Origin: Dictyostelium discoideum
Lineage: Eukaryota
Assembly (NCBI GenBank): GCA_000004695.1
Contig: CM000154.2
Location: forward strand, 1,312,001 to 1,376,000
DNA: 64,000 nucleotides
Direction of reading: 5' to 3'
The notes below the pieces were generated by a model, which saw only the letters and a program-made list of their open reading frames with translations, was not told the DNA's origin and searched no databases. The translations under genes were made by a program, and so were the position numbers. Positions 5,796 to 64,000 of this stretch are shown piece after piece (positions within the stretch are counted from its first letter, which is position 1; each line of letters begins with the position of its first letter).

Positions 5796-7928
5796 TATGT
5801 AAATGGATATATTGATAAACTTTGTGAAAGTGATAATTGTTATTTTTGCCCATGGGATGGTTCACTTGTTAGGGAATTATATTTTGGAGATATTAAACAA
5901 GATCTATTACTTCGTAATAATGAAAATCAACAAGTAAAACAAGTATATGAAGGTGATATTAAACAAGATTTAATTCGTCGTAAAAATAAAATTCATCCAG
6001 AAAAACAAATGCATGAAGAGGATATTAAACAACAAGTTTTTTTCCGTATCAAAAATATTCATGAAAAACCAGTTTATGAAGGTGATATCAAACAAGATTT
6101 ATTACGTCGTAAAAATAAAAATAATCCAGAGAAACAAGTATATGAAGGTGATATTAAACAAGATTTATTACGTCGTAAATATTATGATAAATCTCAATCA
6201 ACCCAAGTATATCAAGGTGATGTGATTCAAGATATATTACGTTCAATAAATCGTCAAGAAAAAGAAATTTATGAAGGTGATATCAAACAAGATTTATTAC
6301 GTCGTAATAATCAAAATAATCAAGAAAAACAAGTTTATGAAAGTGATATCAAACAAGATATTTTACGTCGTAAATATTATGAAAAATCCCAATCAACCCA
6401 AGTATATCAAGGTGATATGACTCAAGATATATTACGTTCATTAAATCGTCAAGAAAAAGGAGTTTATGAAGGTGATATCAAACAAGATTTATTACGTCGT
6501 AAGTATTATGATAAATCTCAATCAAACCAAGTATATCAAGGTGATGTGATTCAAGATATTTTACGTTCTATAAATCGTGATAAAAAACCAGTTTATGAAG
6601 GTGATATCAAACAAGATTTGTTGCTTCGTAATAATCAAAATCCACAAGAGAAATCAATATATGAAGGTGATATCAAACAAGATATATTACGTCGTAAAAA
6701 TCTTGATAAATCTCAATCAATACAATTTTATCCAGGTGATATTATTCAAGATATTTTACGTGTTTTAAATCGTGAGGAAAAAGAAGTTTATGATGGTGAT
6801 ATTAAACAAGACTTATTATCTCGTAAAAATCTTGCCAAATATCAATCAACAGAAGTATATCCAGGTGATGTCATTCAAGATGTTTTACGTGTATTAAATC
6901 ATGATGAAAAAGAAGTTTATGAAGTTGATATCAAACAAGACTTGTTACGTCGTAATAATAAAAATCCACAAGAGAAACCAGTATATGAAGGTGATATTAA
7001 ACAAGATATTTTACGTCGTAATAATCTTGATAAATCTCAACCAAAACAAGTATATCCAGGTGATACTATTCAAGATATTTTACGTATTATTAATCGTGAT
7101 GAGAAAGTTTACGAAGGTGATATTAAACAAGACTTATCAGGTCGTAAAAATCATCAAGAGAAAACTGTTTATGAAGGTGATATCAAACAAGACTTATTAC
7201 GTCGTAAAAATCTTGATAAACCTGATTCAAAACAAGTATATCCAGGTGATGTTATTCAAGATATTTTACGTGTTATTAATCGTGATGAAAAAGAAGTTTA
7301 TGAAGGTGATATTAAACAAGACTTATTACATCGTAATAACAAAAATCGTCAAGAGAAACCAGTATATGAAGGTGACATTAAACAAGATTTATTACGTCGT
7401 AATAACAAAAATCATCAAGAAGAACAAGTATATCAAGGTGATATTATTCAAGATATTTTACGTGTTTTAAATCATGAAGAGAAAGAAGTTTACGAAGGTG
7501 ATATTAAACAAAATTTGTTGCGTCGAAAAAATCATGATCATCCAGAAAAAGAAATTTATGAAGGTGATATTAAACAAGATTTATTACGTCGTAATAACAA
7601 AAACCATCAAGAGAAACTTGTTTATGAAGGTGACATTAAACAAGATTTATTACGTCGTAATAACAAAAATCATAAAGAAGAACAAGTATATCAAGGTGAT
7701 ATTATTCAAGATATTTTACGTGTTTTAAATCATGGAGAAAAAGAAGTAAATGAGGATGAAATTGAAAAAGATTTGATGCAACGTAAAAATCACCATCAAG
7801 AAGAAGAGGCTTCTGAAGACTTGGAAGAAGAAATTGGAAAACTTTGGAATAAACAAAGTCAAGCATTTGTTGAACAACATCCAAACCAACACAACAATCA
7901 AAAAACAATTCACTTGTCAAGACAATAA
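5796..7928 (+). CDS. Secreted tandem-repeat protein, exon 3: Cys-rich motif ([13 protein letters not shown]), then about 25 tandem 20-23-aa units (V)[12 protein letters not shown](K/N)N...EKQ
   Basis: Acceptor 'tccag' at 5795. The frame is continuous with track ORF 6009..7928 (ATG 6009 is in frame, 213 nt downstream). A super-repeat of about 65 aa (195 nt) recurs about 10 times, with a dibasic RR in every unit. Confidence 0.75.
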
Positions 7929-48319: not shown

Positions 48320-49741
48320 TTAAAATCTTTTTGATTGATTTTTTAAATATTGGAATATAAAATTAGAATCATTTTCTTCTAAACAATATAAATTTTTAAC
48401 AATATCTATAATTTGGTCATCAGTTATTAAAATTAAATTTCTGTTGGTTGGATTTAAAATTAAATCAATATAATATTGAAATAATATTTTACTTTTTAAT
48501 TTGAATAAAGTTATTTGAATTATTAAATCTAAACCAGTTGATGAACATATTCCTTTTTTAATATTATCTCCACCACTATTTTTTAATACCCAATCAAAAG
48601 TTTCAATATTATTTGATTCTAATGCACTATCTCTTGTTTTATAATTTATATCAATTACATTTTTAAATCTTTTAATTAAATATTGTAAACATTCTATTTT
48701 TCCATTTTTACAAATTCCAATAAATAATTTATTTATTTGCATTTTAGAAAATGAGGTTTGATTATCACCATAACCATCACCATTACCATCACCATTACCA
48801 TCACCATTACCATTGAAAAAGAATTTTAATAAATCTATTGAACTTAGTCCACCATCAATTTTATCATTTTTAGTTGCAATAGATTCTAAATGATAATAAT
48901 GATAATAATCAATTGGTTTGTTTTTTGAAAGATATTTTAAAATATCTAAATTTGCATATTGAATTGCGGTTGGTGTTAAATTATACATTTTTTCAGAATA
49001 ATTATATTTATAACCACTTTCAACAATATCATTTTTTTCAATACCAAATAAACTATGATAAAATCTAATATCATTTGATTTTGTTAATAATAAATTTGTT
49101 GTATGGAAAAAAGATTGAAAATTATTTTTTAAATCTTTATTTAATTTTAAAATTTTATCAAATAATTCAAAATCTTTTTCTTTTAATGTACATAATAATA
49201 AAGCAGTATCAGATTGATTCTCAATTGAATAGTAACCTTTCTCTATAAACATTTTAATAATTGGTAAATTATTACCATTATTTAAAGTACAAAGATAATT
49301 TATTGATTTTAAAGTTGGTATAATTTTCAAATCATTTAAAATATATTCTAAAAATTGTTTTTTCTTTAAATTTAAATCTTGTTTTTCTTTATAAAGAAAT
49401 GAAAAATTATTTAAACAACAAAATTCAATTATTTTTGATGAATATTTTGATGAAATTGGTTGAAATTGTGGAAATAATTCTAAAACTTCTTTAAATATCT
49501 CTAAATCAATATTTCTTTCTAAAAATAAATAAAATAAATCATCTGTAAATTGTTCCCTTGTTTTAATTTGTTTTTTAAATTTATAAATCATTAATTGAAA
49601 ATGATTATTTCTAATTATCCAATTAATTTTACATTGATAATATTTTTTAACTAAGTTTGGTTTATTAATTTCTTTAATTTCGTTAAATATTTTTTTTCTT
49701 AAAAATTTATTATTAAAAACTAATTTAAATAAATTATCCAT
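48320..49741 (-). CDS. Hypothetical N/K/L/I-rich protein with a (GNGD)n tract
   Basis: Intronless 473-codon track ORF with typical codon usage and no recognisable domain. Confidence 0.5.
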   Translation of the reverse strand: MDNLFKLVFNNKFLRKKIFNEIKEINKPNLVKKYYQCKINWIIRNNHFQLMIYKFKKQIKTREQFTDDLFYLFLERNIDLEIFKEVLELFPQFQPISSKYSSKIIEFCCLNNFSFLYKEKQDLNLKKKQFLEYILNDLKIIPTLKSINYLCTLNNGNNLPIIKMFIEKGYYSIENQSDTALLLCTLKEKDFELFDKILKLNKDLKNNFQSFFHTTNLLLTKSNDIRFYHSLFGIEKNDIVESGYKYNYSEKMYNLTPTAIQYANLDILKYLSKNKPIDYYHYYHLESIATKNDKIDGGLSSIDLLKFFFNGNGDGNGDGNGDGYGDNQTSFSKMQINKLFIGICKNGKIECLQYLIKRFKNVIDINYKTRDSALESNNIETFDWVLKNSGGDNIKKGICSSTGLDLIIQITLFKLKSKILFQYYIDLILNPTNRNLILITDDQIIDIVKNLYCLEENDSNFIFQYLKNQSKRF

Positions 49742-52436: not shown

Positions 52437-53322
52437 ATAATTTCTATTTTTATTATTTTTTTTTAATTTTCTTTTTTTTTTTTTAAATTAAAATTAAAAT
52501 TCAAATAAAATAAAAAATCTTATTTTTAAAAATATCCAATCTAGATATTTTGTGAAAAAAAAAAAAAGATTTTTTTTTTTTTTTTTTTGTTTAAAAGGTT
52601 TTTTATTTTTTTTTTTTTCTTATGTTTAAAAATATTTTTTCTCTTGCCAAAAAGTAAATTATTAATTATAGTTTTAATATTGATTTCAAAAAAAAAAAAA
52701 AAAAAAAAAAAGAAATTAATAGAAAATAAAAAAGGAATCAATAGGAAAAAAAAAATGACCATTTGGAGAAAAAAAAAAAATTAGTAAATTAAAAAAAGAA
52801 AAATATTTATATAAAAAATAAACTATACAAAACATTAGTATCAATTTTATCCAATCCAAAAAAAAAGAATCAATAAAATCATAAGTCAGATAATGAAAAA
52901 TATTTATATAAAAAATAAACTATTCAAAACACTGGAATCATCATAAATTTAATTATCAAATGGTGAAATGATTGGTATTGTAATTTTAAGTCTAATACTC
53001 TTTTTATTTAAAGAATTAGTTAAAAAATTAAACGGATGTAAAAATTTCAGCATAAAAGTGCTGCGTTGGTGGGTTTGAGACCTTTTTTTTTTTATTTTAC
53101 ACACAAGGGGAGGCCTCCATATAAAAAATTAATATTTTTTTATTTTTAGGTTGGTGACAAAAAAAAAAAAAAAAAAAAAAATCTAAAAAATCATGGTTTT
53201 TTTTTCAACGAAACTGTAAAATTAAAAGTACCTACCCGCACGAAAAAAAAAAAATTTGATATCAAATTTTACTTTTTTTTTTTTTTTCAAATAATTCGAT
53301 TTGATTATTATTCACAAATAAA

Positions 53323-53377
53323 ATGAATTGCTATTTAAACTTATTTTTTATAATTTTAATTATTTCCTTTGTAAATT
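53323..53377 (+). CDS. Type-I membrane glycoprotein paralog A, exon 1 (signal peptide MNCYLNLFFIILIISFVN-)
   Basis: ATG 53323, hydrophobic signal peptide, donor GTTAGT leaving phase 1. The structure parallels paralog B. Confidence 0.45.
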
Positions 53378-53464
53378 GTTAGTTTTTTTTTTAAAAAAAA
53401 AAAAAAAAAATTATAAAAATTTTTAAATTGTAAACATTAATAACTAATTAAAAAAAATAAATAG

Positions 53465-53758
53465 GTGATGTTTCAATAAAATATTATAACGAACCAATAT
53501 CAGATGATTATATAGCAAATGTAAATGGCAATTGTTCTCAAAAAATCTGTTTCTTGGCCATTTCAAATAAAAATATTTCCGATATAAGTGCTTATGGAAT
53601 TCCTTTTACTTTATTACATGATCCATTTTTTGGACCAATTTCTTATGTTGAACTTTCAGTTTTTTCAAATACATCCTCGCCATCAACTATAATTACAATT
53701 GCAATTACAGAAAATGATGGAGCAATAACTCATTTTTTTAAAACAACCTATTGTTTGC
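53465..53758 (+). CDS. Paralog A, exon 2
   Basis: Acceptor 'aaatag'. CDVSIKYYNEPISDDYIANVNGNCSQK... is in frame with track ORF 53554..53766. Donor GTATGT at 53759 leaves phase 1, homologous to exon 2 of paralog B. Confidence 0.55.
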
Positions 53759-53856
53759 GTATGTAATTTTTTACAAAAATAATATTAATTATATAATAAT
53801 AATAATATAATACTAAAAAAAAAAAAACATATATATATATATATAATTCTTAATAG

Positions 53857-56800
53857 TTCAAGAGACAACAAATTTCCAATTAGTTTTTAAAAATTCACCA
53901 TTTTTTTTAAATGAACCAATGTCAATAGATTCAGAATTTGGTACTAATAGTGGAGGTCCAAAAATGGTTGTACAGTTCATTGGTAATACACCTTCGGTTT
54001 TTAAAAAATTTTCAAGTAATTCATTATTCAACTCAACAGTTAAACTTTTAGGAAATAAAGCAACAAGTAGACTCTATGAAGTAACAATGTTTCCCATATC
54101 AATGCCAAGTATTAATTTTGAAAATCATAATCTTACTTATAAATATAATAGTGGTAGTGGAGAATTACAAACAACTTCATCATTTACACCAATATATTTT
54201 ACTGAATCTCACTATAATACATTTTTTCCTGCAATAAATTCAAAAAATAATATAATATATCAAGTTGATTTTCAATTCACAACTGATATCTATCCATATG
54301 GTTCAATGGTTTGTACTAATTGTTATATTTTCCTAGTTGCAAATAATGGATCCAGGGTGCAATTTCTTATTTATTTTAATAAAATTGGTTCTTACAATTC
54401 TACTGGTACATTTTCTAATGATGCACTCCATAACAATATGTATTTTACAAAAACTATTACAATTAAACCTGATAATTTTTCAAATGGTACAGAGATGACA
54501 TTGGTCTTCCAAGATACTGCATTTGGTACAACACCAATGGGGTTTTCAGCAATTTTAACTGGTGTTCCAGTATTACCAAATACACCAGTAACAATATATT
54601 ATCCAAGTGGCCTTAAAAGACAATTATGGTTTAATCAACCTCCATTCGGGTTAATAGATGGTTTTATGGTGGGTTTGGTCAATAAATTCAATGTCATGTT
54701 TACTATTAAACTATCAAAGTATATGAGTGGTACATTAAGATATAGTTTTAATTCAAACAATCAAAAATCACCAATAGAAATACCATTGCCAACTCAAATT
54801 GATCCACAGTTAATTGATACAGAATCACCAATAGTAACATCAGCTATTGTAGTAGGCGATATTGGTAAAATGAAATTAGTTATTCAAATGGCAATTACAG
54901 ATGATATTTCAGGTTTTTCAGCTTTTGTATGTTTAGATACAAATGAAATCATTTTCGATTATAAAAATTTAATGCTTGGAGGTACAATTAATAATGGTGT
55001 CTATAGCTTTATCTATGATTATGGTTTCACACCAGTTTGTAAAAATTCAGCATTTTTAGATTTCGCAGGTAATGCACAAGTTCAAAATCAACCATTCACT
55101 GATTTTATTAGATCATTTATAAATGCTACTACCAATATTAAATATTTAATGATGAATACACCAAGTTATCAAGCAAAAACATTATCAGATTTTCAAGAAT
55201 TTTATTTTGCATTTAATAATATCAGTTTAACAAATCAAGGTTTTTATAATACATTATATTTCAAATTCAAAGATAATAATAATGATCCAGATTATTGTAT
55301 TAAATTTAGATTAGCAATTTCAGGTGGATATCCAAATCCAATAGATTATTACTCAATATGGGATAATAATTTACAAATGTATAAAGTTGAATTTTATATT
55401 CCACCAAATCTATCAAAAATTAATATACTTTATTATATTTATTTAGGACTTGATTATGAAACTCAATATTCAACATCACATTTCCAATCATGGGTCAGTT
55501 CAAACAATGCAACATTATCAGTATACTCAAATATTGGTGATATGATGCCACCTTTGGTTCGTTCATTACTAATTAGCCCATCAACTGTGGATTCAGATAG
55601 CTTTTTAAATTATTATTTAATCATTGAAGATGTATACAATGGATTTGGTTATGGAGAAATTACAATTATGGGTTCAGTGGATTTTATACAATGGAATTTT
55701 ACATTTTCATCTGGTGAAAATAAAAATCCATTGGTTGATGTTTATAATTTTTCAATATATATTCCAAAGTGTATATCCCAATCCTACAATATCTATCATT
55801 TGAAATTAGTAGATAAAGCAGGAGTATTCTCAGAGTATACATTTGGTAAATCACAGCCTTTCCCAATCATCGATCCTTTGGTTAAAATAGTTGTTAATGA
55901 ATACAAATTCAATTGCTCAGTTAATCTTTATTCAAACTCTTTACCAGTTTTGAAAGATTTTACATTTGAACCATTATCAATAGATGTAGGTGGCCCAGAT
56001 TCATCAAGAACTGTTATATTTAAAATGGTGGTGGATGGTGCAGCCAAAGCAGGTTCAAAACCCACCATTTATTTAGGTGATACTTATATAAACTATGTAA
56101 CAGTACCAGTTTTATCAGATGGTGTATTTGATCCAATTGCAAATATCACAACATTTACAGTTTCAACAATTATTCCATATGGTTTTGGTTATCCAGAAGG
56201 TATTTTATTAAATGTATTTGGAATTCAAACTACATATTCCACATTTCAAGGTTATTCTTCACTGGATTTACGAGATGCTAATTTCACATATACACTTTTA
56301 ACTCCAACATTCTCTTCTTATCCAAAAATGACTTCATATTTACCAATTTCAGCCAATGGAGGAGAGTTAACTATTTTTGGAAGAGAATTATCAACAATAG
56401 CAAATTCATTTTATAGAATTATATATTCGGTAAATAGTAGTAATTCTACACCAGTGGCTTCAAATATTAATGTAAAATACATTTCTAATGTTGCAATTAA
56501 ATTAAATGTTTCTTCAACAACTGGTCCATTCACGATTGAATATACAACCTCATCAAAAACCATTGATACAATCACTATATATCCATATCATGATTATTGG
56601 AATCCAAACCCAGTAACACCAACACCAACCGAAACACCAACAGTACCACCTACTATAGCACCAACTGAAACACCAACAGTACCACCAACAAATCCACCAC
56701 AAAAATGTGGTGGTAATCCACAATGTGGTGGTGAGTCAAAAGGTAATTGTGTGAATGGAGTAGGTTGTGTTTGTATTTCACCATGGATTGGAAGTGAATG

Positions 56801-57698
56801 TCAATCAAGAATTATTACTATCCCACCACCAGTCATAGATCCAACAAATCCAAATCAAAATTTAACATTAAATTCAACAGGTACAAACGAATTCACATTG
56901 GTCAGTTTAGTATCATTAGTATCATTAAGAGAATTAAATTTTAAAAATGAATTAGTTAGATCATTCCGTTTCGATAAATGGAAATTAATATCAAACACTA
57001 CAACCGATAGTAATTATATAACAGATGTAATAGACCCAAAAAATAATAATACAATTTGTTCAGTTAATGTTTCAACTACTTGGTATCAAACAAAAACAGA
57101 TATCGAATTTGCAGGTCAAAAATTAACAATGAATCCAAGTACATTAAAATATAATATCAATATTACATCATTCCCATTCACATATGGATTGAATACACTT
57201 CAATTAGTAATGTCAGCAACAGCACAATCAACATCACAACAAGATGATCAATGTTCATCCAATGAATTTGGTGATACTACATCAAATGATAATTCAAATT
57301 ATCTTCAACTATCAGTCAATCAACATTCACTCTATGGTAGATTTATTAAAAGAGGTATTGTAGATAACAATATCAAATCAATTGGTAATGAAATTTTAAA
57401 AGATCTCTCAAGTGAAAACTCTTATTACATTTCACAATCATATATTGGTATAAATATTCCATTTTACAAAGAATCTGTTCAATTAGATCCAGATTTCTCA
57501 GTTTTATTAGATCAAAGATCAGCATCATCAATTTGTAATAATAAAGGAAATAAATTATCAAAAGGTGCTATCATTGGTATATCAATTGGGTGTGCTGCCT
57601 TCACTATCATTGTTGTAACTTTAGTTGCAATACTTTTAAAGAATAAATATTTCTTTAAAAGTGTTCAATTAAAAGTGATTAAAATGGTGGCAAAATAA
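53857..57698 (+). CDS. Paralog A, exon 3 (about 1280 aa): N-glycan-rich beta-rich ectodomain, P/T linker, Cys-rich EGF-like module (CGGNPQCGGESKGNCVNGVGCVCISPWIGSECQ), TM helix, short tail
   Basis: Acceptor 'cttaatag' at 53856, in frame with track ORF 53919..57698. The TM segment is AIIGISIGCAAFTIIVVTLVAILL near the C-terminus. Confidence 0.75.
56690..57600 (+). repeat. Near-identical about 0.9-kb segment (copy 1) shared by the 3' coding ends of the tandem paralogs
   Basis: Sequence from 'ccaccacaaaaatgtggtggtaatccacaatgtggtgg' onward is almost base-for-base identical to 61914..62824, at an offset of 5224 bp. Identical antisense track ORFs 57373..57561 and 62597..62785 confirm it. Confidence 0.85.
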
Positions 57699-58519
57699 TA
57701 AATAAAACATTTCCACTTGTGTATTTATAAGTTATAAATAGATTTTTACAATATTTTAATTTTTTTTTTTTTTTAGAAAATAAAATTTTATTTGATATAG
57801 TCATTTATTTATTTATTTTTTTTTGTTTTTTTTAAAAGAATAATCTAAAACGATCTGGAAACAATTCTCTTTAAAGAATTTAGAGCGAAATTTGGAAACA
57901 ACAATAGTGTGGTGGGCAATCAATTTTTTATTAGTAATTTCTTTTTTTTTTTTTTTTTTTTAGTAAATGGGGGTTGTTTACCACTTTGAAACTATTTTTA
58001 ACTGATTTAAAATAATTTATTTAATATTTAATTTTCAATGTGTCCATAGTTAAAAATGCTCTTTAATTTATTTGTTTTACTTGTAATGGATGTGGATTAC
58101 AATAATTTTATAGACTATCATTTAATTTTAAAAAATCCTATAGTTCTTTTATTGTATCAGTTTCAAATAAAAAAAATAGATATTTATTTTAATTTTACCA
58201 GTATTAATATTTCAAAATCCCAAAAAAAACCGAAAGGCGTTTCTTTACATTTTTTAGTTGAATTTCAAAGAAAAAATTTTAATATGTTTTTTCAAATCAA
58301 ATTTATTATAATTATTGAAAAAAAAAAAAAAATTATTTAAAAATTATTTAAATCTATATTCCATGTACTTTTATTTTAAATAGGTTTATAAATAACCAAT
58401 AATAACAACAGTTATTAATATTAAATAAAAAATAAAAAATGAATTTTCATAAAAAAAAACGAAAAAAAATCTTTCCCGGCTCCTCTTTTTTTACACTATT
58501 AAATTCGCAACATATAAAT

Positions 58520-58554
<35 letters not shown>

Positions 58555-58560
58555 AAAAAA

Positions 58561-58633
58561 ATGATTAACATTAATATAAACAAAATATTTATTTTGATTT
58601 TCTTTATTATAACTTATATAAACATAATTAAGG
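58561..58633 (+). CDS. Type-I membrane glycoprotein paralog B, exon 1 (signal peptide MINININKIFILIFFIITYINIIK-)
   Basis: ATG 58561, donor GTAATT leaving phase 1. Confidence 0.5.
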
Positions 58634-58664
58634 GTAATTATAATAATAAAAATTCTGAAAATAG

Positions 58665-58698
<34 letters not shown>

Positions 58699-58723
58699 TT
58701 TTAATTAAAAATATTGCAAACAG

Positions 58724-59014
58724 GTGATATATCAATAAAGTATTATGATGAACCATTACCGGAAAATTTTGTTGCTGATTCAATTGGTAATTGTAAAGTA
58801 AAGTATTCTTTGTTTATAAAAAGCGATGTGCCAATAAAATCCATAGAAACTTCTCCAAGTGCCACAAATCCATTTGGTGAATTAAATAAATTAAATACCA
58901 CATTCTCGTTTCAAATAATATCAAATTTAGATTCGCCAAACTTTACACTCACAGTAATAATTATTGATAATAATTTAAAAGAATTTAGAGATTCAAGAAT
59001 AGTATATTGCGTTA
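58724..59014 (+). CDS. Paralog B, exon 2
   Basis: Acceptor 'caaacag'. GDISIKYYDEPLPENFVADSIGNCKVK... is in frame with track ORF 58714..59025. Donor GTAAGT. Confidence 0.6.
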
Positions 59015-59095
59015 GTAAGTTATAGTTTTAATATTATATTTTTCAATTTTTATTTTTACAATTATTCAATTTATCATTTCAATAAAATAATAAAA

Positions 59096-59133
<38 letters not shown>

Positions 59134-59137
59134 TTAG

Positions 59138-62100
59138 AATTAAATAATTATGGCCCAACAACAGAATATTTATTACAGACAAAGAAAAATAAAAGTAAAC
59201 TTTTTTTAAATGGTGTAATTAGTAAAAGTTCAAATACAGGAAAAGTAAGTGGGCCATTAATTGTTGTTGAATATATTAGTAATACACCACCACTTTTAGA
59301 ATCATTATACCCCAATCCATTTGATTTATTAATAAAACCATTAGGAAATAAAAAAACAAGTATATTGTATGAAATTTTATTTTTTACTTCAGCACCAAAC
59401 TATTTTTTCGACCAACTTGAAATATTTTATGCATGGGGTAGTTTTAAAATAGAACAAGCTCCCTCAACAAATCCCCAAATTATATTTTCCCAAATTTCTA
59501 TTTTTCCAACAGTTCAACCGAGTGCTAGTGCAATTGGGCTTTTTAGTTTAAAATTTAATGATTCTTCACAAGAAAGAACAATTAGAATTATCTCTGTAAA
59601 TTCTTATGTATATCCAGCTTTCAATGATGGTTTAAATGTAACATATCTTTGTTATTTTAATGAAAAAGGTAAATCAGATATTAATTTATCATACGGTATC
59701 CAATCTAAACCAATCTTTTCGGGTACTGTAAATATCCAAGCTGAAGATTACTCACAAGGCAAAGAAATGTTATTATTATTCAATGATCAATTAATGAATA
59801 TCACTCCAACAGCATTTACAGTAGTTTTAAGTGGAGTACCACTATTACCACAATATCCAATAAAATTAACATATCCAAGTGGTTTCGAGAGACAATTATG
59901 GCTCAACCAAAATCCATTTTCATTAAAGAATGGTTTTAGAAAAGATTCAATTGATACTTATGAAATAGTTTTCACTGCAAAGTTATCAAAATATTCAAGA
60001 GGTTCACATATTTTAAAATATAATTCAACAAATTACCTTACTTTCGAAGCTACACCTAAACCAGAATTAATTGTTGATAGTAGTCCACCAGACATAATAA
60101 TGGTTCGATCTTTTAATATTGGTAGAATGAAAATAGACATTCAAATTTCAATTATTGATGATATTTCAGGTTTTTCAGCTTTTGTATGTTTAGATACCAA
60201 TGAAATCATTTTCGATTATAAAAATTTAAAAATAGGTGGCACAATAAATAATGGTGTTTATAGTTTTATTTATGATTATGGTTTCACACCAGTTTGTAAA
60301 AAATCAGCATTTTTAGATTTCGCAGGCAATGCATTAGTACAAAATCAATCATTTGTGGATTTAATAGTTTCAAATGGAATGTTTAACTATTTTTCAATTG
60401 ACCTTCCAATTACAAAACCAAAAACATTATCAGATTTTGATCAATTTTATTTTGCATTCAATAATATCAATTTAACAAACCAAGGTTTTTACAATACATT
60501 ATTTTTTAAATTTAAAGATAATGATAATGATCCAGACTATTGTATTAAATTTAGATTGGCAATTTCAGAAGGTTGGCCAAATCCAGTGGATAGTTTTTCA
60601 ACATGGGATTACAATTTGCAAATGTATAGAGTTGACTTTTTTTTACCGTCAAACTTATTAAATATGGATATACTTTATTATATTTATTTAGGACTTGATT
60701 ATGAAACTCAATATTCAACATCACACTTCCAATCATGGGTCAGTTCAAACAATGCAACATTATCAGTATACTCAAATAATGGAGATATAATGCCACCTAT
60801 GGTTCATTATTTAGATTGGCTCATAACTGATATGCTAAACTATTCAATACAAAGGAATTTAATATGGATGTTTAATATTGAAGACCAATATAATGGTTTT
60901 GATATGGGTGAGCTTACAATTATGGGTTCAGTAGATTTTATACCATGGAACTTTAAATTTTCATCAAATAATAAGAATCCACTATCAGATTATTATAACT
61001 TTACAATTTCTATTCCTCAAAATTCAAGAACTCAAACCTATTATATCACTCATTTGAAATTAGTTGATAAAAATGGAATATTTTCTGAATATAATATTAG
61101 TAAACCACAAGTTTTCCCAAACGTTGATCCATTAATTAAAATGCCCTCTCGATCATTTAAAGTTCTTGGTGATGATGATAATCCTATTTCAAGTACACTT
61201 CCAACATTGGTTGATTTCATTATAACACCAAGTTTAATCGATGTCGGAGGTTCAGATATTTCAAGAAATGTTATATTCACTATTAAAACCCAAGATGTGG
61301 TTGGAATTAGACAAGATGTAAAACCAACCATTTATTTAGGTGATACCTATTTAAATTATATACCAGTACCAGTTACATCAGATGGTGTTTTAGATCCAAT
61401 TACAGGTGTCACGACATTTACGGTTTCAACAACTATTCCATATGGTTTTGGTTACCCAGAAGGTATTTTATTAAATGTATTTGGAATTAAAAGCTCACAT
61501 TCTACATTTCAAGGTTATTCATCATTTGATTTACGTGATGCTTTTTTTAGCTATTCAATCACTACTTCAACTTTCTCAGTAGGTACGAAATTATTATCCT
61601 ATTCACCAATTTCAAACAAAGGTGGTCAATTTACAATTTTTGGAAGATCATTAGATGCCATAGAGAATCCTTCTTACTATATTACTTTAAACTCTCAAAC
61701 AAATGTATCAAAAATAATTCCAGACATTCAATTTATTTCAATTAGTAGTTCAGCAGTTATAATTACAGCAGTTCCTTCTAATTCTTCATTTTCAGTATTT
61801 TTAGTAGATTCCTCAAGTAATAATATAATTGATTCAATTATTATTAATCCATATTATGATTATTGGGTATCCAATCCGATAAAACCAACTGAAACACCAA
61901 TAGTATTACCTACAAATCCACCACAAAAATGTGGTGGTAATCCACAATGTGGTGGTGAATCAAAAGGTAAATGTGTGAATGGAGTAGGTTGTGTTTGTAT
62001 TTCACCATGGATTGGAAGTGAATGTCAATCAAGAATTATTACTATCCCACCACCAATCATAGACCCAAAAAATCCAAATCAAAATTTAACATTAAATTCA

Positions 62101-62931
62101 ACAGGTACAAATGAATTCACATTGGTCAGTTTAGTATCATTAGTTTCATTAAGAGAATTAAATTTTAAAAATGAATTAGTTAGATCATTCCGTTTCGATA
62201 AATGGAAATTAATATCAAACACTACAACCGATAGTAATTATATAACAGATGTAATAGACCCAAAAAATAATAATACAATATGTTCAGTTAATGTTTCAAC
62301 TACTTGGTATCAAACAAAAACAGATATCGAATTTGCAGGTCAAAAATTAACAATGAATCCTAGTACATTAAAATATAATATCAACATTACATCATTCCCA
62401 TTCACATATGGATTGAATACACTTCAATTAGTAATGTCAGCAACAGCACAATCAACATCACAACAAGATGATCAATGTTCATCCAATGAATTTGGTGATA
62501 CTACATCAAATGATAATTCAAATTATCTTCAACTATCAGTCAATCAACATTCACTCTATGGTAGATTTATTAAAAGAGGTATTGTAGATAACAATATCAA
62601 ATCAATTGGTAATGAAATTTTAAAAGATCTCTCAAGTGAAAACTCTTATTACATTTCACAATCATATATTGGTATAAATATTCCATTTTACAAAGAATCT
62701 GTTCAATTAGATCCAGATTTCTCAGTTTTATTAGATCAAAGATCAGCATCATCAATTTGTAATAATAAAGGAAATAAATTATCAAAAGGTGCTATCATTG
62801 GTATATCAATTGGGTGTGCTGCATTTACTGTTGTTGCTGTAACTCTACTTGTAATTTTATTAAAGAATAAATATTTCTTTAAAAGTATTCAATTAAAAGC
62901 TATAGAATTAGTAGAAACAAAAAATAAATAA
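59138..62931 (+). CDS. Paralog B, exon 3 (about 1264 aa), same architecture as paralog A. The C-terminal about 300 aa are nearly identical to paralog A
   Basis: Acceptor 'aaaattag', in frame with track ORF 59365..62931. Confidence 0.75.
61914..62824 (+). repeat. Near-identical about 0.9-kb segment (copy 2), in paralog B
   Basis: See copy 1. Identity breaks down only in the last about 25 codons and the 3' UTRs. Confidence 0.85.
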
Positions 62932-63028
62932 AGTATAGTGTATTTATAATAAAAAAATAAATAAAAATTATTAAAAGTATAAAAGAGAAGATATATTTAT
63001 ATATATATGGAAAAAAATTAAATATTAT

Positions 63029-63583
63029 TTATTCTTTTATTTCATTTTTTTCTTTTTTGTGTAATTTTGAGAAAAATGAATGTTTTTTCTCTTTTTTCTC
63101 CTTTTTATTATCACCAAGCTCTTCATTTTCATTTGATATATTATTTTCTTTTGCAAGATTTGGTTGGTTATTTGATTTATAATCGTTTTGTTGATAGTTG
63201 TCATATGCTTGTTTATTTAATTGTACTGGCGGTTGATTATAATTATAGTCCATGTATCCTGGTTGTTGTTGTTGTGGCTGTTGTTGATATTGATTTGGGT
63301 ATTGATCTTGTCTTTGTAAATATTCAGGTGGTACTTGAGCCATTGGGGCGTCATATTTTCCTTTTTTATGATTTTTTTCATTATTTTCAGCTTCAAATTT
63401 AACATCGTCAGGATTATTAAAAGTAGGCATAGTTTCTTTTTCATAATATGGAATTGTTGCACCACAAGACGGACAATGTAAAAACATATTACCATTTTTT
63501 ACTTTAAAGAATGGAATAAAAAATAAGTGAAACCACTCATCATTTTTTACTAATTGAACTCCACTATTTTTACAATTAACACA
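63029..63583 (-). CDS. Small zinc-ribbon protein with a Q/N/Y/P-rich C-terminal tail, exon 3 of 3
   Basis: CVNCKNSGVQLVKNDEWFHLFFIPFFKVKNGNMFLHCPSCGATIPYYEKE... has two CxxC knuckles. The frame stays open 32 codons 5' of the track ORF start (63487) up to acceptor 'aaaaaag'. Confidence 0.55.
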   Translation of the reverse strand, partial: CVNCKNSGVQLVKNDEWFHLFFIPFFKVKNGNMFLHCPSCGATIPYYEKETMPTFNNPDDVKFEAENNEKNHKKGKYDAPMAQVPPEYLQRQDQYPNQYQQQPQQQQPGYMDYNYNQPPVQLNKQAYDNYQQNDYKSNNQPNLAKENNISNENEELGDNKKEKKEKKHSFFSKLHKKEKNEIKE

Positions 63584-63664
63584 CTTTTTTTTTTTTTTTT
63601 TTTTAAAGTTTTAGTTATTTTAAATTATAATATTATTATTACGAAAAAAGTAAATTATAGTTAC

Positions 63665-63733
63665 AATTCTTTTCTTGTTATCAATTAATTTCGACTTTCC
63701 TCTAAGTCCAAATGGAATAATTATTGGAATCCA
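63665..63733 (-). CDS. Zinc-ribbon protein, exon 2 (WIPIIIPFGLRGKSKLIDNKKRI)
   Basis: Acceptor 'tttattacag' and donor GTAACT, in phase 0 on both sides. The hydrophobic stretch suggests membrane association. Confidence 0.4.
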
Positions 63734-63804
63734 CTGTAATAAAACTAATGATTAATAAATTAAATTTTAATAAACAAATAAAAATAATAAAATTTTAAGT
63801 TTAC

Positions 63805-63807
63805 CAT
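63805..63807 (-). CDS. Zinc-ribbon protein, putative exon 1 (ATG only, then GTAAAC intron of 71 nt)
   Basis: Minus-strand ATG is immediately followed by GTAAAC. This is the only ATG that joins in frame to exon 2. Confidence 0.3.
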
Positions 63808-63867
63808 TTTTTTTTTCTCTGTTTTAGTAAATTAAAAAAATAAATTTCATTTTAATAAAAAGGAAAT

Positions 63868-63901
<34 letters not shown>

Positions 63902-64000
63902 AAAGAAAAAAGAAATTAATTTAAAATTTCCTTTTTTAAACAATTTTTTTTTTTTTTTTATTTTTTTTTATTTTAATTTTAATTTTATTTTTTTATTTTT

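Follow-up and report, generated by a model that had tools for sequence, protein, structure and literature searches.

Partial gene conversion between tandem duplicates is well documented in the primate globin and opsin pairs, and in the yeast FLO and Candida ALS adhesin genes conserved C-terminal parts accompany variable N-terminal binding domains. A further point of reference is the pair tgrB1 and tgrC1, adjacent and divergently transcribed genes for large type-I surface glycoproteins. Here we describe a locus on chromosome 5 of Dictyostelium discoideum AX4, contained in a stretch of 64,000 nucleotides (GenBank contig CM000154.2, positions 1,312,001 to 1,376,000 of the forward strand; G+C ~22%) that we refer to as the window and whose numbering is used throughout unless another sequence is named. 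Two neighbouring genes in the window, A and B, encode large proteins that share an almost identical membrane-proximal coding tract. The overall explanation that we favor, with good confidence, is that A and B are tandem paralogs of the ComC family in which this tract has been recurrently converted.

The locus resembles the described interlocus conversion systems in that paralogs are more similar to each other than orthologs are within a discrete tract, synonymous sites included, in that the rest of the two genes shows an older duplication, and in that the putatively converted part is a constrained structural module and the unconverted part a distal domain. It differs from them in its host, which is haploid and mostly clonal, in the estimated 50-100 million years over which the tract would have been maintained (PMC12745789), and in the coincidence of the tract borders with a proline/threonine (P/T) linker and a transmembrane (TM) helix. 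The A/B pair adds a further case of a familiar evolutionary process, in annotated yet unstudied genes, and is no new kind of system.

Two long open reading frames (ORFs) of the + strand, 53919-57698 and 59365-62931, extend into three-exon genes, for which models were obtained by enumeration of splice models and translation:

53323..57698, + strand: gene A, DDB_G0288301; exons 53323-53377, 53465-53758 and 53857-57698; 1396 amino acids
58561..62931, + strand: gene B, DDB_G0288317; exons 58561-58633, 58724-59014 and 59138-62931; 1385 amino acids

A and B follow one another on the same strand, their start codons being 5238 bp apart, in agreement with an earlier note on this DNA, made from the sequence alone, that had described same-strand neighbours separated by 5.2 kb. 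The three-exon plan given there, with a signal-peptide exon, an exon 2 of about 290 nt and a 3.8-kb exon 3, is likewise confirmed by the models, in which A and B have an exon 2 of 294 and 291 nt and an exon 3 of 3842 and 3794 nt, respectively, and all four introns are in phase 1. The protein size of 1.2 thousand amino acids put forward in the same note was too low, the actual size being ~1.39 thousand. In a database search the A product matched the AX4 protein P0001 exactly, exon 1 excepted, and the B product is identical to P0014 from an independent 2025 re-annotation of D. discoideum and shares a 90% cluster with AX4 XP_636802.1. The AX4 reference places the first exons at 52990-53040 (A) and 58056-58090 (B), neither of which gives a signal peptide (the reference proteins begin MIGIVILSL... 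in P0001 and MLFNLFVLL in P0012). Exon 1 of A as modelled here (53323-53377) encodes a signal peptide that is kept in proteins P0002, P0003 and P0004. Because the exon 1 choices used for A and B are conserved across species and agree with the 2025 re-annotation, the AX4 reference models of both genes are probably wrong at the 5′ end.

In a codon alignment A and B share 62% amino-acid identity overall, distributed in a strongly mosaic profile. The segments that make up this profile, and the C-terminal domains with which they coincide, are as follows:

A 53857..54850, B 59150-60110, + strand: N-terminal fast-evolving ectodomain, no Pfam domain; 54.8% nucleotide identity between paralogs
A 54873..55085, B 60130-60342, + strand: internal patch 1 (DUF7743 core); 89.2% identical
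A 55171..55560, B 60416-60805, + strand: internal patch 2; ~88% identical
A 56057..56314, B 61320-61577, + strand: internal patch 3 (DUF7034); 84% identical, from a repeat search
A 56691..57598, B 61915..62822, + strand: homogenised 3′ tract; 898/908 identical
A 56706..56813, B 61930-62037, + strand: EGF-like Cys module (Pfam DUF7949); E = 6.5e-11 (A) and 2.2e-11 (B)
A 56868..57506, B 62095-62730, + strand: ComC supersandwich domain (PF22933)
A 57567..57638 (residues 1354-1377), B 62791-62862 (residues 1340-1363), + strand: TM helix, from hydropathy and AlphaFold2 (AF2)

The 3′ tract spans the end of the P/T linker, the EGF-like module, the supersandwich domain and the first half of the TM helix, and its longest perfect run is 437 nt (57162-57598 = 62386-62822). 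Over the slightly wider span A 56690-57600 versus B 61914-62824, which the earlier note had singled out as almost base-identical, 900/911 positions are the same (98.8%), and the 50-60% identity that it had attributed to most of the ectodomain is matched by the 54.8% found in the N-terminal part of exon 3. At conserved residues, synonymous codon differences between AX4 A and B amount to 2.7% inside the tract as opposed to 23.5% outside it (Fisher p = 2e-17), and the identity of the tract is far beyond chance. Its 5′ edge coincides with the end of the P/T linker; in D. discoideum its 3′ edge falls inside the TM helix at 57598 / 62822, the cytoplasmic tails and 3′ untranslated regions (UTRs) remaining gene-specific; in D. 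firmibasis and D. cf. discoideum cfZ the tract continues through the tail. The same shared segments were recovered independently by the repeat search. The internal patches had also been described as almost base-identical, which proved too strong, since A 54850-55100 is 86.3% and A 55180-55560 87.9% identical to B; within patch 2 just the stretch 55423-55533 = 60668-60778 approaches identity (110/111), and this in AX4 only. Patches 1 and 2 were correctly located in that description, and patch 3 at 56057-56314 was overlooked. A uniform divergence along the genes, which had been named as the result that would speak against conversion, is not what the profile displays.

The mosaic was placed in a comparative frame with the syntenic loci of six other genomes, those of D. 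citrinum, D. firmibasis, D. cf. discoideum cfY and cfZ, and the diverged D. discoideum isolates FIW and FIR (ACTFIR), most of the assemblies being from Holland et al. 2025. The divergence of AX4 and D. firmibasis has been estimated at 50-100 million years (Holland et al., PMC12745789). The order pdx2-pdx1-A-B-Zn_ribbon_15 is retained in all six genomes. For the N-terminal part of exon 3, identity is ~55% between A and B whichever genome is considered, compared with 65-97% between orthologs; over the segment from the EGF-like module to the TM helix, A and B of the same genome share 96.4-99.5% of their nucleotides (five genomes), and AX4 genes share 88-90% with their D. citrinum and D. firmibasis orthologs. 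Synonymous divergence (dS, Nei-Gojobori), suggested at the outset as a means of delimiting conversion tracts, sets this one clearly apart, with paralog values of 0.010-0.105 inside it (AX4 0.066, FIW 0.105, cfZ 0.015, D. citrinum 0.066, D. firmibasis 0.010) and of 0.84-0.96 in the N-terminal part (AX4 0.84); ortholog dS is 0.31-0.42. A neighbor-joining (NJ) bootstrap tree of the N-terminal part groups the sequences by gene, with the species tree recurring at 100% in both the A and the B clade, and the region 55561-56600 also groups by gene at 100%. Conversely, in the NJ tree of the 3′ segment the sequences group by genome, and A pairs with B at 100% in each of AX4, cfZ, D. citrinum and D. firmibasis. 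The gene conversion or concerted evolution proposed in the earlier note is strongly supported by this reversal of grouping along the gene, which extends to synonymous sites.

On this comparative evidence the A/B duplication is shown to be older than the split of D. discoideum and D. firmibasis. The trees and distances likewise show the membrane-proximal 0.9 kb as homogenised repeatedly and independently in each lineage since the duplication, the DUF7743 core as homogenised occasionally, and the N-terminal third and the DUF7035/7034 region as having diverged as separate orthologous lineages. A grouping of the 3′ segments by genome, together with a labile copy number, could also arise if the gene or its 3′ part had been duplicated independently and recently in each species, in a process of birth and death without long-term concerted evolution. 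This explanation is very improbable, however, since the N-terminal and central parts yield A and B clades that repeat the species tree with 100% bootstrap support, their paralog dS is ~0.9 in every genome, and synteny and intron phases are common to the loci.

Near-identity of two copies might also reflect extreme purifying selection at the nucleotide level, exerted for instance through an antisense gene or an embedded RNA, or a collapse of the assembly, and the supersandwich domain is indeed the most constrained part of the protein, with a ratio of nonsynonymous to synonymous divergence (dN/dS) of 0.1-0.25. Across genomes and at conserved residues, paralogs show synonymous codon differences of 0.7-5.2% inside the tract and of 22-28% outside it (p <= 6.5e-12). 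For orthologs the figures are 17.6-20.6% inside and 19-28% outside, a difference that is significant for just one pair of the four, AX4 B and D. firmibasis B (p = 0.026). Because orthologs diverge in the tract as they do elsewhere, the tract appears to be under no unusual synonymous constraint, and a scan of 52500-64000 against Rfam gave no match to any family. An assembly artefact, which the earlier note had listed as a possible objection, is excluded because ten mismatches and unique flanks distinguish the copies, because the original AX4 assembly and the 2025 re-assembly yield the same proteins, and because the pattern recurs in six independently assembled genomes. Constraint or collapse as the source of the identity is accordingly given hardly any credence.

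The shared segments fall into three strata. The 3′ 0.9 kb is homogenised continuously, and patch 1 episodically; patch 2, the region 55561-56600 and the N-terminal third follow the pattern of ordinary orthologs, apart from the 111-nt stretch of AX4. In the tree of patch 1 the two D. firmibasis copies pair at 100% and the two D. citrinum copies at 61%, and the copies of the discoideum clade group by gene yet within one joint clade, a placement that implies an older conversion event. The tree of patch 2 groups by gene (A clade 88%), which suggests that this patch is mostly conserved rather than converted. Since AX4 A and B share derived states that are absent from both copies in FIW and FIR, some events in the 3′ tract postdate the split of AX4 from these isolates.

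We consider interlocus gene conversion very likely to be the homogenising mechanism. Non-reciprocal exchange would occur during homologous repair, with the neighbouring copy 5.2 kb away as template. The 5′ limit of the tract would be set by the P/T linker, which is variable in length and rich in insertions and deletions, and the 3′ limit by the fact that homology ceases in the tail and the 3′ UTR. Being under purifying selection (dN/dS 0.1-0.25), the module would stay similar between the copies and by staying similar would keep recombining; the distal half, ~45% diverged, may be too different to recombine or may be protected by selection for distinct functions.

A competitor to conversion is homogenisation mainly through repeated unequal crossing-over, in cycles of duplication and deletion. 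Arrays of three genes, A, B1 and B2, are found in ACTFIR (L006 10001-19190) and in D. cf. discoideum Z (cfZ; L004 17435-24448), each with an extra B-type copy, and ACTFIR B1 combines a B-like 5′ part with an A-like tail, is mosaic across segments, and matches A at its 3′ end over a slightly longer distance than B2 does (97.1% over 1094 nt). The mosaic structure and A-like tail of B1 fit an unequal recombination between homogenised 3′ ends. An origin of B1 as a simple B::A crossover product was also considered and was not adopted, the evidence being suggestive at most. Unequal crossing-over as the principal process is nevertheless unlikely, because four lineages keep orthologous 5′ halves, intergenic DNA and flanks around the identical tract, because a single crossover inside the tract would exchange everything downstream of it and the tails and 3′ UTRs of D. 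discoideum are still gene-specific, and because short, isolated tracts like 55423-55533 are what conversion typically leaves behind.

Both gene products begin with a hydrophobic N-terminal signal sequence and carry a single C-terminal TM helix in a hydropathy scan, the latter matching helix 291-334 of an AF2 model of the C-terminal part, followed by a cytoplasmic tail of 19-22 amino acids. N-glycosylation sequons number 27 in A and 22 in B, the P/T linker is 31 residues long in A and 16 in B, and the Cys module reads ...SKGNC... in A, with the N replaced by K in B. The N-glycan-rich ectodomain, P/T linker, single EGF-like Cys module and TM helix anticipated in the earlier note are in this way all present in both proteins; its layout missed the supersandwich domain of ~210 residues that intervenes between the EGF-like module and the TM helix. 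Pfam identifies DUF7035, DUF7034, DUF7949 and the ComC supersandwich in both A and B, and DUF7743 also in B, all above the curated cut-offs (27 bits for DUF7035, DUF7034 and DUF7949) and in one common order: signal peptide, a predicted beta-rich stretch of ~430 residues without a Pfam domain, DUF7743, DUF7035, DUF7034, P/T linker, DUF7949, supersandwich, TM helix and a tail of ~20 residues. DUF7949 lies directly N-terminal of the supersandwich with DUF7035 and DUF7034 upstream, and hydropathy, the AF2 helix and the coordinates agree on a type-I topology.

With these features, A and B are by their predicted domain content tandem paralogs of the dictyostelid ComC family, and type-I membrane glycoproteins. 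They carry its Pfam domains in the family order in type-I proteins of ~1,390 residues; they differ in being annotated just as hypothetical or 'EGF-like domain-containing' and in having no Pfam domain in their first ~430 residues. ComC itself is listed as a secreted or TM protein with EGF domains (PMC4931340 Table 3), and comC mutants are listed with aberrant aggregation (PMC2873529 Table 1). An exhaustive HMMER search with A residues 544-1396 retrieved 823 representatives, 365 of them at E <= 1e-30. Among the 150 relatives listed, most were matched over ~540-1380 of proteins of ~1,350-1,400 residues, those that bear a name are without exception uncharacterised 'EGF-like domain-containing' proteins of dictyostelids (Dictyostelium, Tieghemostelium, Polysphondylium, Heterostelium), and the closest beyond the A/B orthologs are 31-39% identical. 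A profile search with the C-terminal module yielded just short fragments, ComC not being among them, and look-ups of the clusters of two family representatives gave unnamed dictyostelid proteins exclusively. Many ComC-family matches of 2,400-3,900 residues, among the matches listed, may be fused tandem genes. GLMP (PDB 8r8q chain B) and the galactose-mutarotase-like supersandwich domains of glycoside hydrolases and phosphorylases resemble the A/B domain at the level of the fold only, with ~10% identity, and a function common to A/B and GLMP-type domains would be speculative. A sequence search of the PDB with the full B protein found no match. A Foldseek search of the PDB with a model of the N-terminal part of B returned generic beta-sandwich strings (titin, invasin, cadherins) with TM-scores of ~0.13, which were not used as evidence of fold. 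It is possible, though we hold the idea tentatively and at somewhat less than even chances, that A and B share a stalk-and-anchor module and use it to display different distal binding surfaces on the outside of the cell, where they might act in adhesion or cell-cell communication, as for ComC.

Several observations weigh against this account of the locus. The argument for conversion is phylogenetic, no event having been directly observed, and G+C content at third codon positions (GC3) is not raised in the tract, which accordingly bears no sign of GC-biased conversion. The third copies in ACTFIR and cfZ mean that unequal crossing-over is also active at the locus, and part of the homogenisation could stem from duplication and loss instead of conversion. 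Membership in the ComC family is assigned through the Pfam family definition, not through the ComC sequence itself, and the AF2 model of the N-terminal 516 residues of B, computed from an alignment of nine sequences, is all-beta but poor, with a mean predicted local distance difference test score (pLDDT) of 51. Lastly, a literature search found nothing on this locus, and neither gene identifier has expression data or papers.

A different reading of the pair is that A and B form a tgr-like kin-recognition or allorecognition system, a polymorphic ligand and its receptor with variable N-terminal heads on a shared stalk kept by conversion; the earlier note had interpreted the ectodomain as a diverging recognition domain and had guessed at a relation to the tgr family. 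Selection along the genes is compatible with such heads, since dN/dS between orthologs rises from 0.1-0.25 in the tract through 0.25-0.5 in the middle to 0.55-1.23 across the N-terminal third, where some windows, around A 54150-54500 and B 59437-59600, approach or exceed 1. This N-terminal ratio would fit relaxed constraint as well as diversifying selection and is not decisive. Like tgrB1 and tgrC1, A and B have undergone local duplication, inversion and fragmentation among isolates, with three copies in two genomes and a broken and partly inverted B in a third; they share the type-I glycoprotein architecture; and paralog recombination is reported to yield mosaic genes at the tgr locus (PMC12745789), as it does at A/B. 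One EukProt protein of 497 residues, P0177, joins ComC_SSD (PF22933) with an IPT/TIG domain (PF01833), a co-occurrence that may link the ComC and Tgr families distantly.

Against a tgr-like pair stands, in the first place, the absence of any IPT/TIG (PF01833) match in A or B in Pfam, even at E <= 1, where the EGF-like module is found as DUF7949 and the family assignment is to ComC. A lies ahead of B on the + strand and each has its own upstream region, a tandem order unlike the divergent arrangement of tgrB1 and tgrC1. Their orthologs stand in one-to-one relation and follow the species tree at 100% bootstrap, with no trans-specific sharing of alleles among the few genomes compared, and recombination at A/B homogenises the copies instead of diversifying them. 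Between AX4 and FIW, dS at A and B is 0.05-0.15, in the range of the 0.064 of the flanking pdx1, and for this reason the divergence of the isolates was rejected as a sign of hyper-polymorphism; no indication of hyper-polymorphism or balancing selection was seen at A/B, in what is a weak test with three to seven genomes sampled. Whole-gene dN/dS of A and B (0.3-0.5) equals that of the neighbouring ankyrin-repeat gene (0.39-0.52). Holland et al., in their 2025 comparison of these genomes, single out the tgr genes, and a text search of the main text gave no mention of EGF (PMC12745789). The allorecognition reading is in view of this improbable, and the guessed kinship with tgr finds no support. 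We would give rather little weight, too, to the idea that surface recognition in the D. discoideum species complex has, besides tgr and independently of it, a second locus in the A/B(/B′) array, in which fast-evolving, copy-number-variable N-terminal heads would set partner specificity and conversion would keep the supersandwich-plus-TM part compatible with one shared cis partner, as GLMP with its transporter.

Other features of the locus concern annotation and neighbouring genes. In the annotations the adjacent B1 and B2 copies have been fused into one protein, of 2,758 residues in ACTFIR and 2,747 residues in cfZ. In cfY, B is split into several ORFs (L003 16039-19489) and its last 870 bp are inverted (L003 19481-20350 = window 62032-62901), exactly the supersandwich-TM part, the inverted piece being annotated as fused to the downstream Zn_ribbon_15 gene; cfY B is either a pseudogene or an assembly problem. 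The B ortholog of D. firmibasis is annotated with 1,902 residues, an upstream Cys-rich gene with a poly-T/S linker being fused to it (L002 10001-13270; P0006 residues 1-540), which is probably a gene-model error. D. citrinum (L001 14607-15626), cfY (L003 14464-15483) and cfZ (L004 14576-15635) carry, between A and B and in the opposite orientation, a small intact Cys-rich gene with (TPTV)n repeats, the protein of which has no Pfam match. In the window it is represented by the following:

57835..57927, - strand: remnant (~38 amino acids) of the Cys-rich (TPTV)n-repeat gene, found with tblastn

Because AX4, FIW and FIR retain only this C-terminal remnant, of ~29-38 residues, the gene was evidently lost in the D. 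discoideum lineage. The ankyrin-repeat gene (48320-49741, - strand) evolves as fast as A and B overall, with a dN of 0.17 against D. citrinum. A Pfam scan of the other large ORFs of the window found no further ComC-family genes and identified DSPc, SWIRM, C2H2, WD40, PhyH and Ank domains. A 639-residue ORF at 6009-7928 (+ strand) has weak, partial Pfam matches to families of bacterial or phage type (NMB0315 domain I, YopX), none of which passes the threshold and which are probably low-complexity artefacts.

The A/B locus provides, from a haploid social amoeba, a clean, well-bounded natural case of domain-restricted concerted evolution, and displays the products of unequal crossing-over as well, namely the third copies, the broken copy and the inversion. 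It could serve for measuring conversion tract lengths and homology thresholds in Dictyostelium. The pattern also marks the EGF-supersandwich-TM module as the constrained functional core of the large ComC family, for which trees built from whole genes will mislead.

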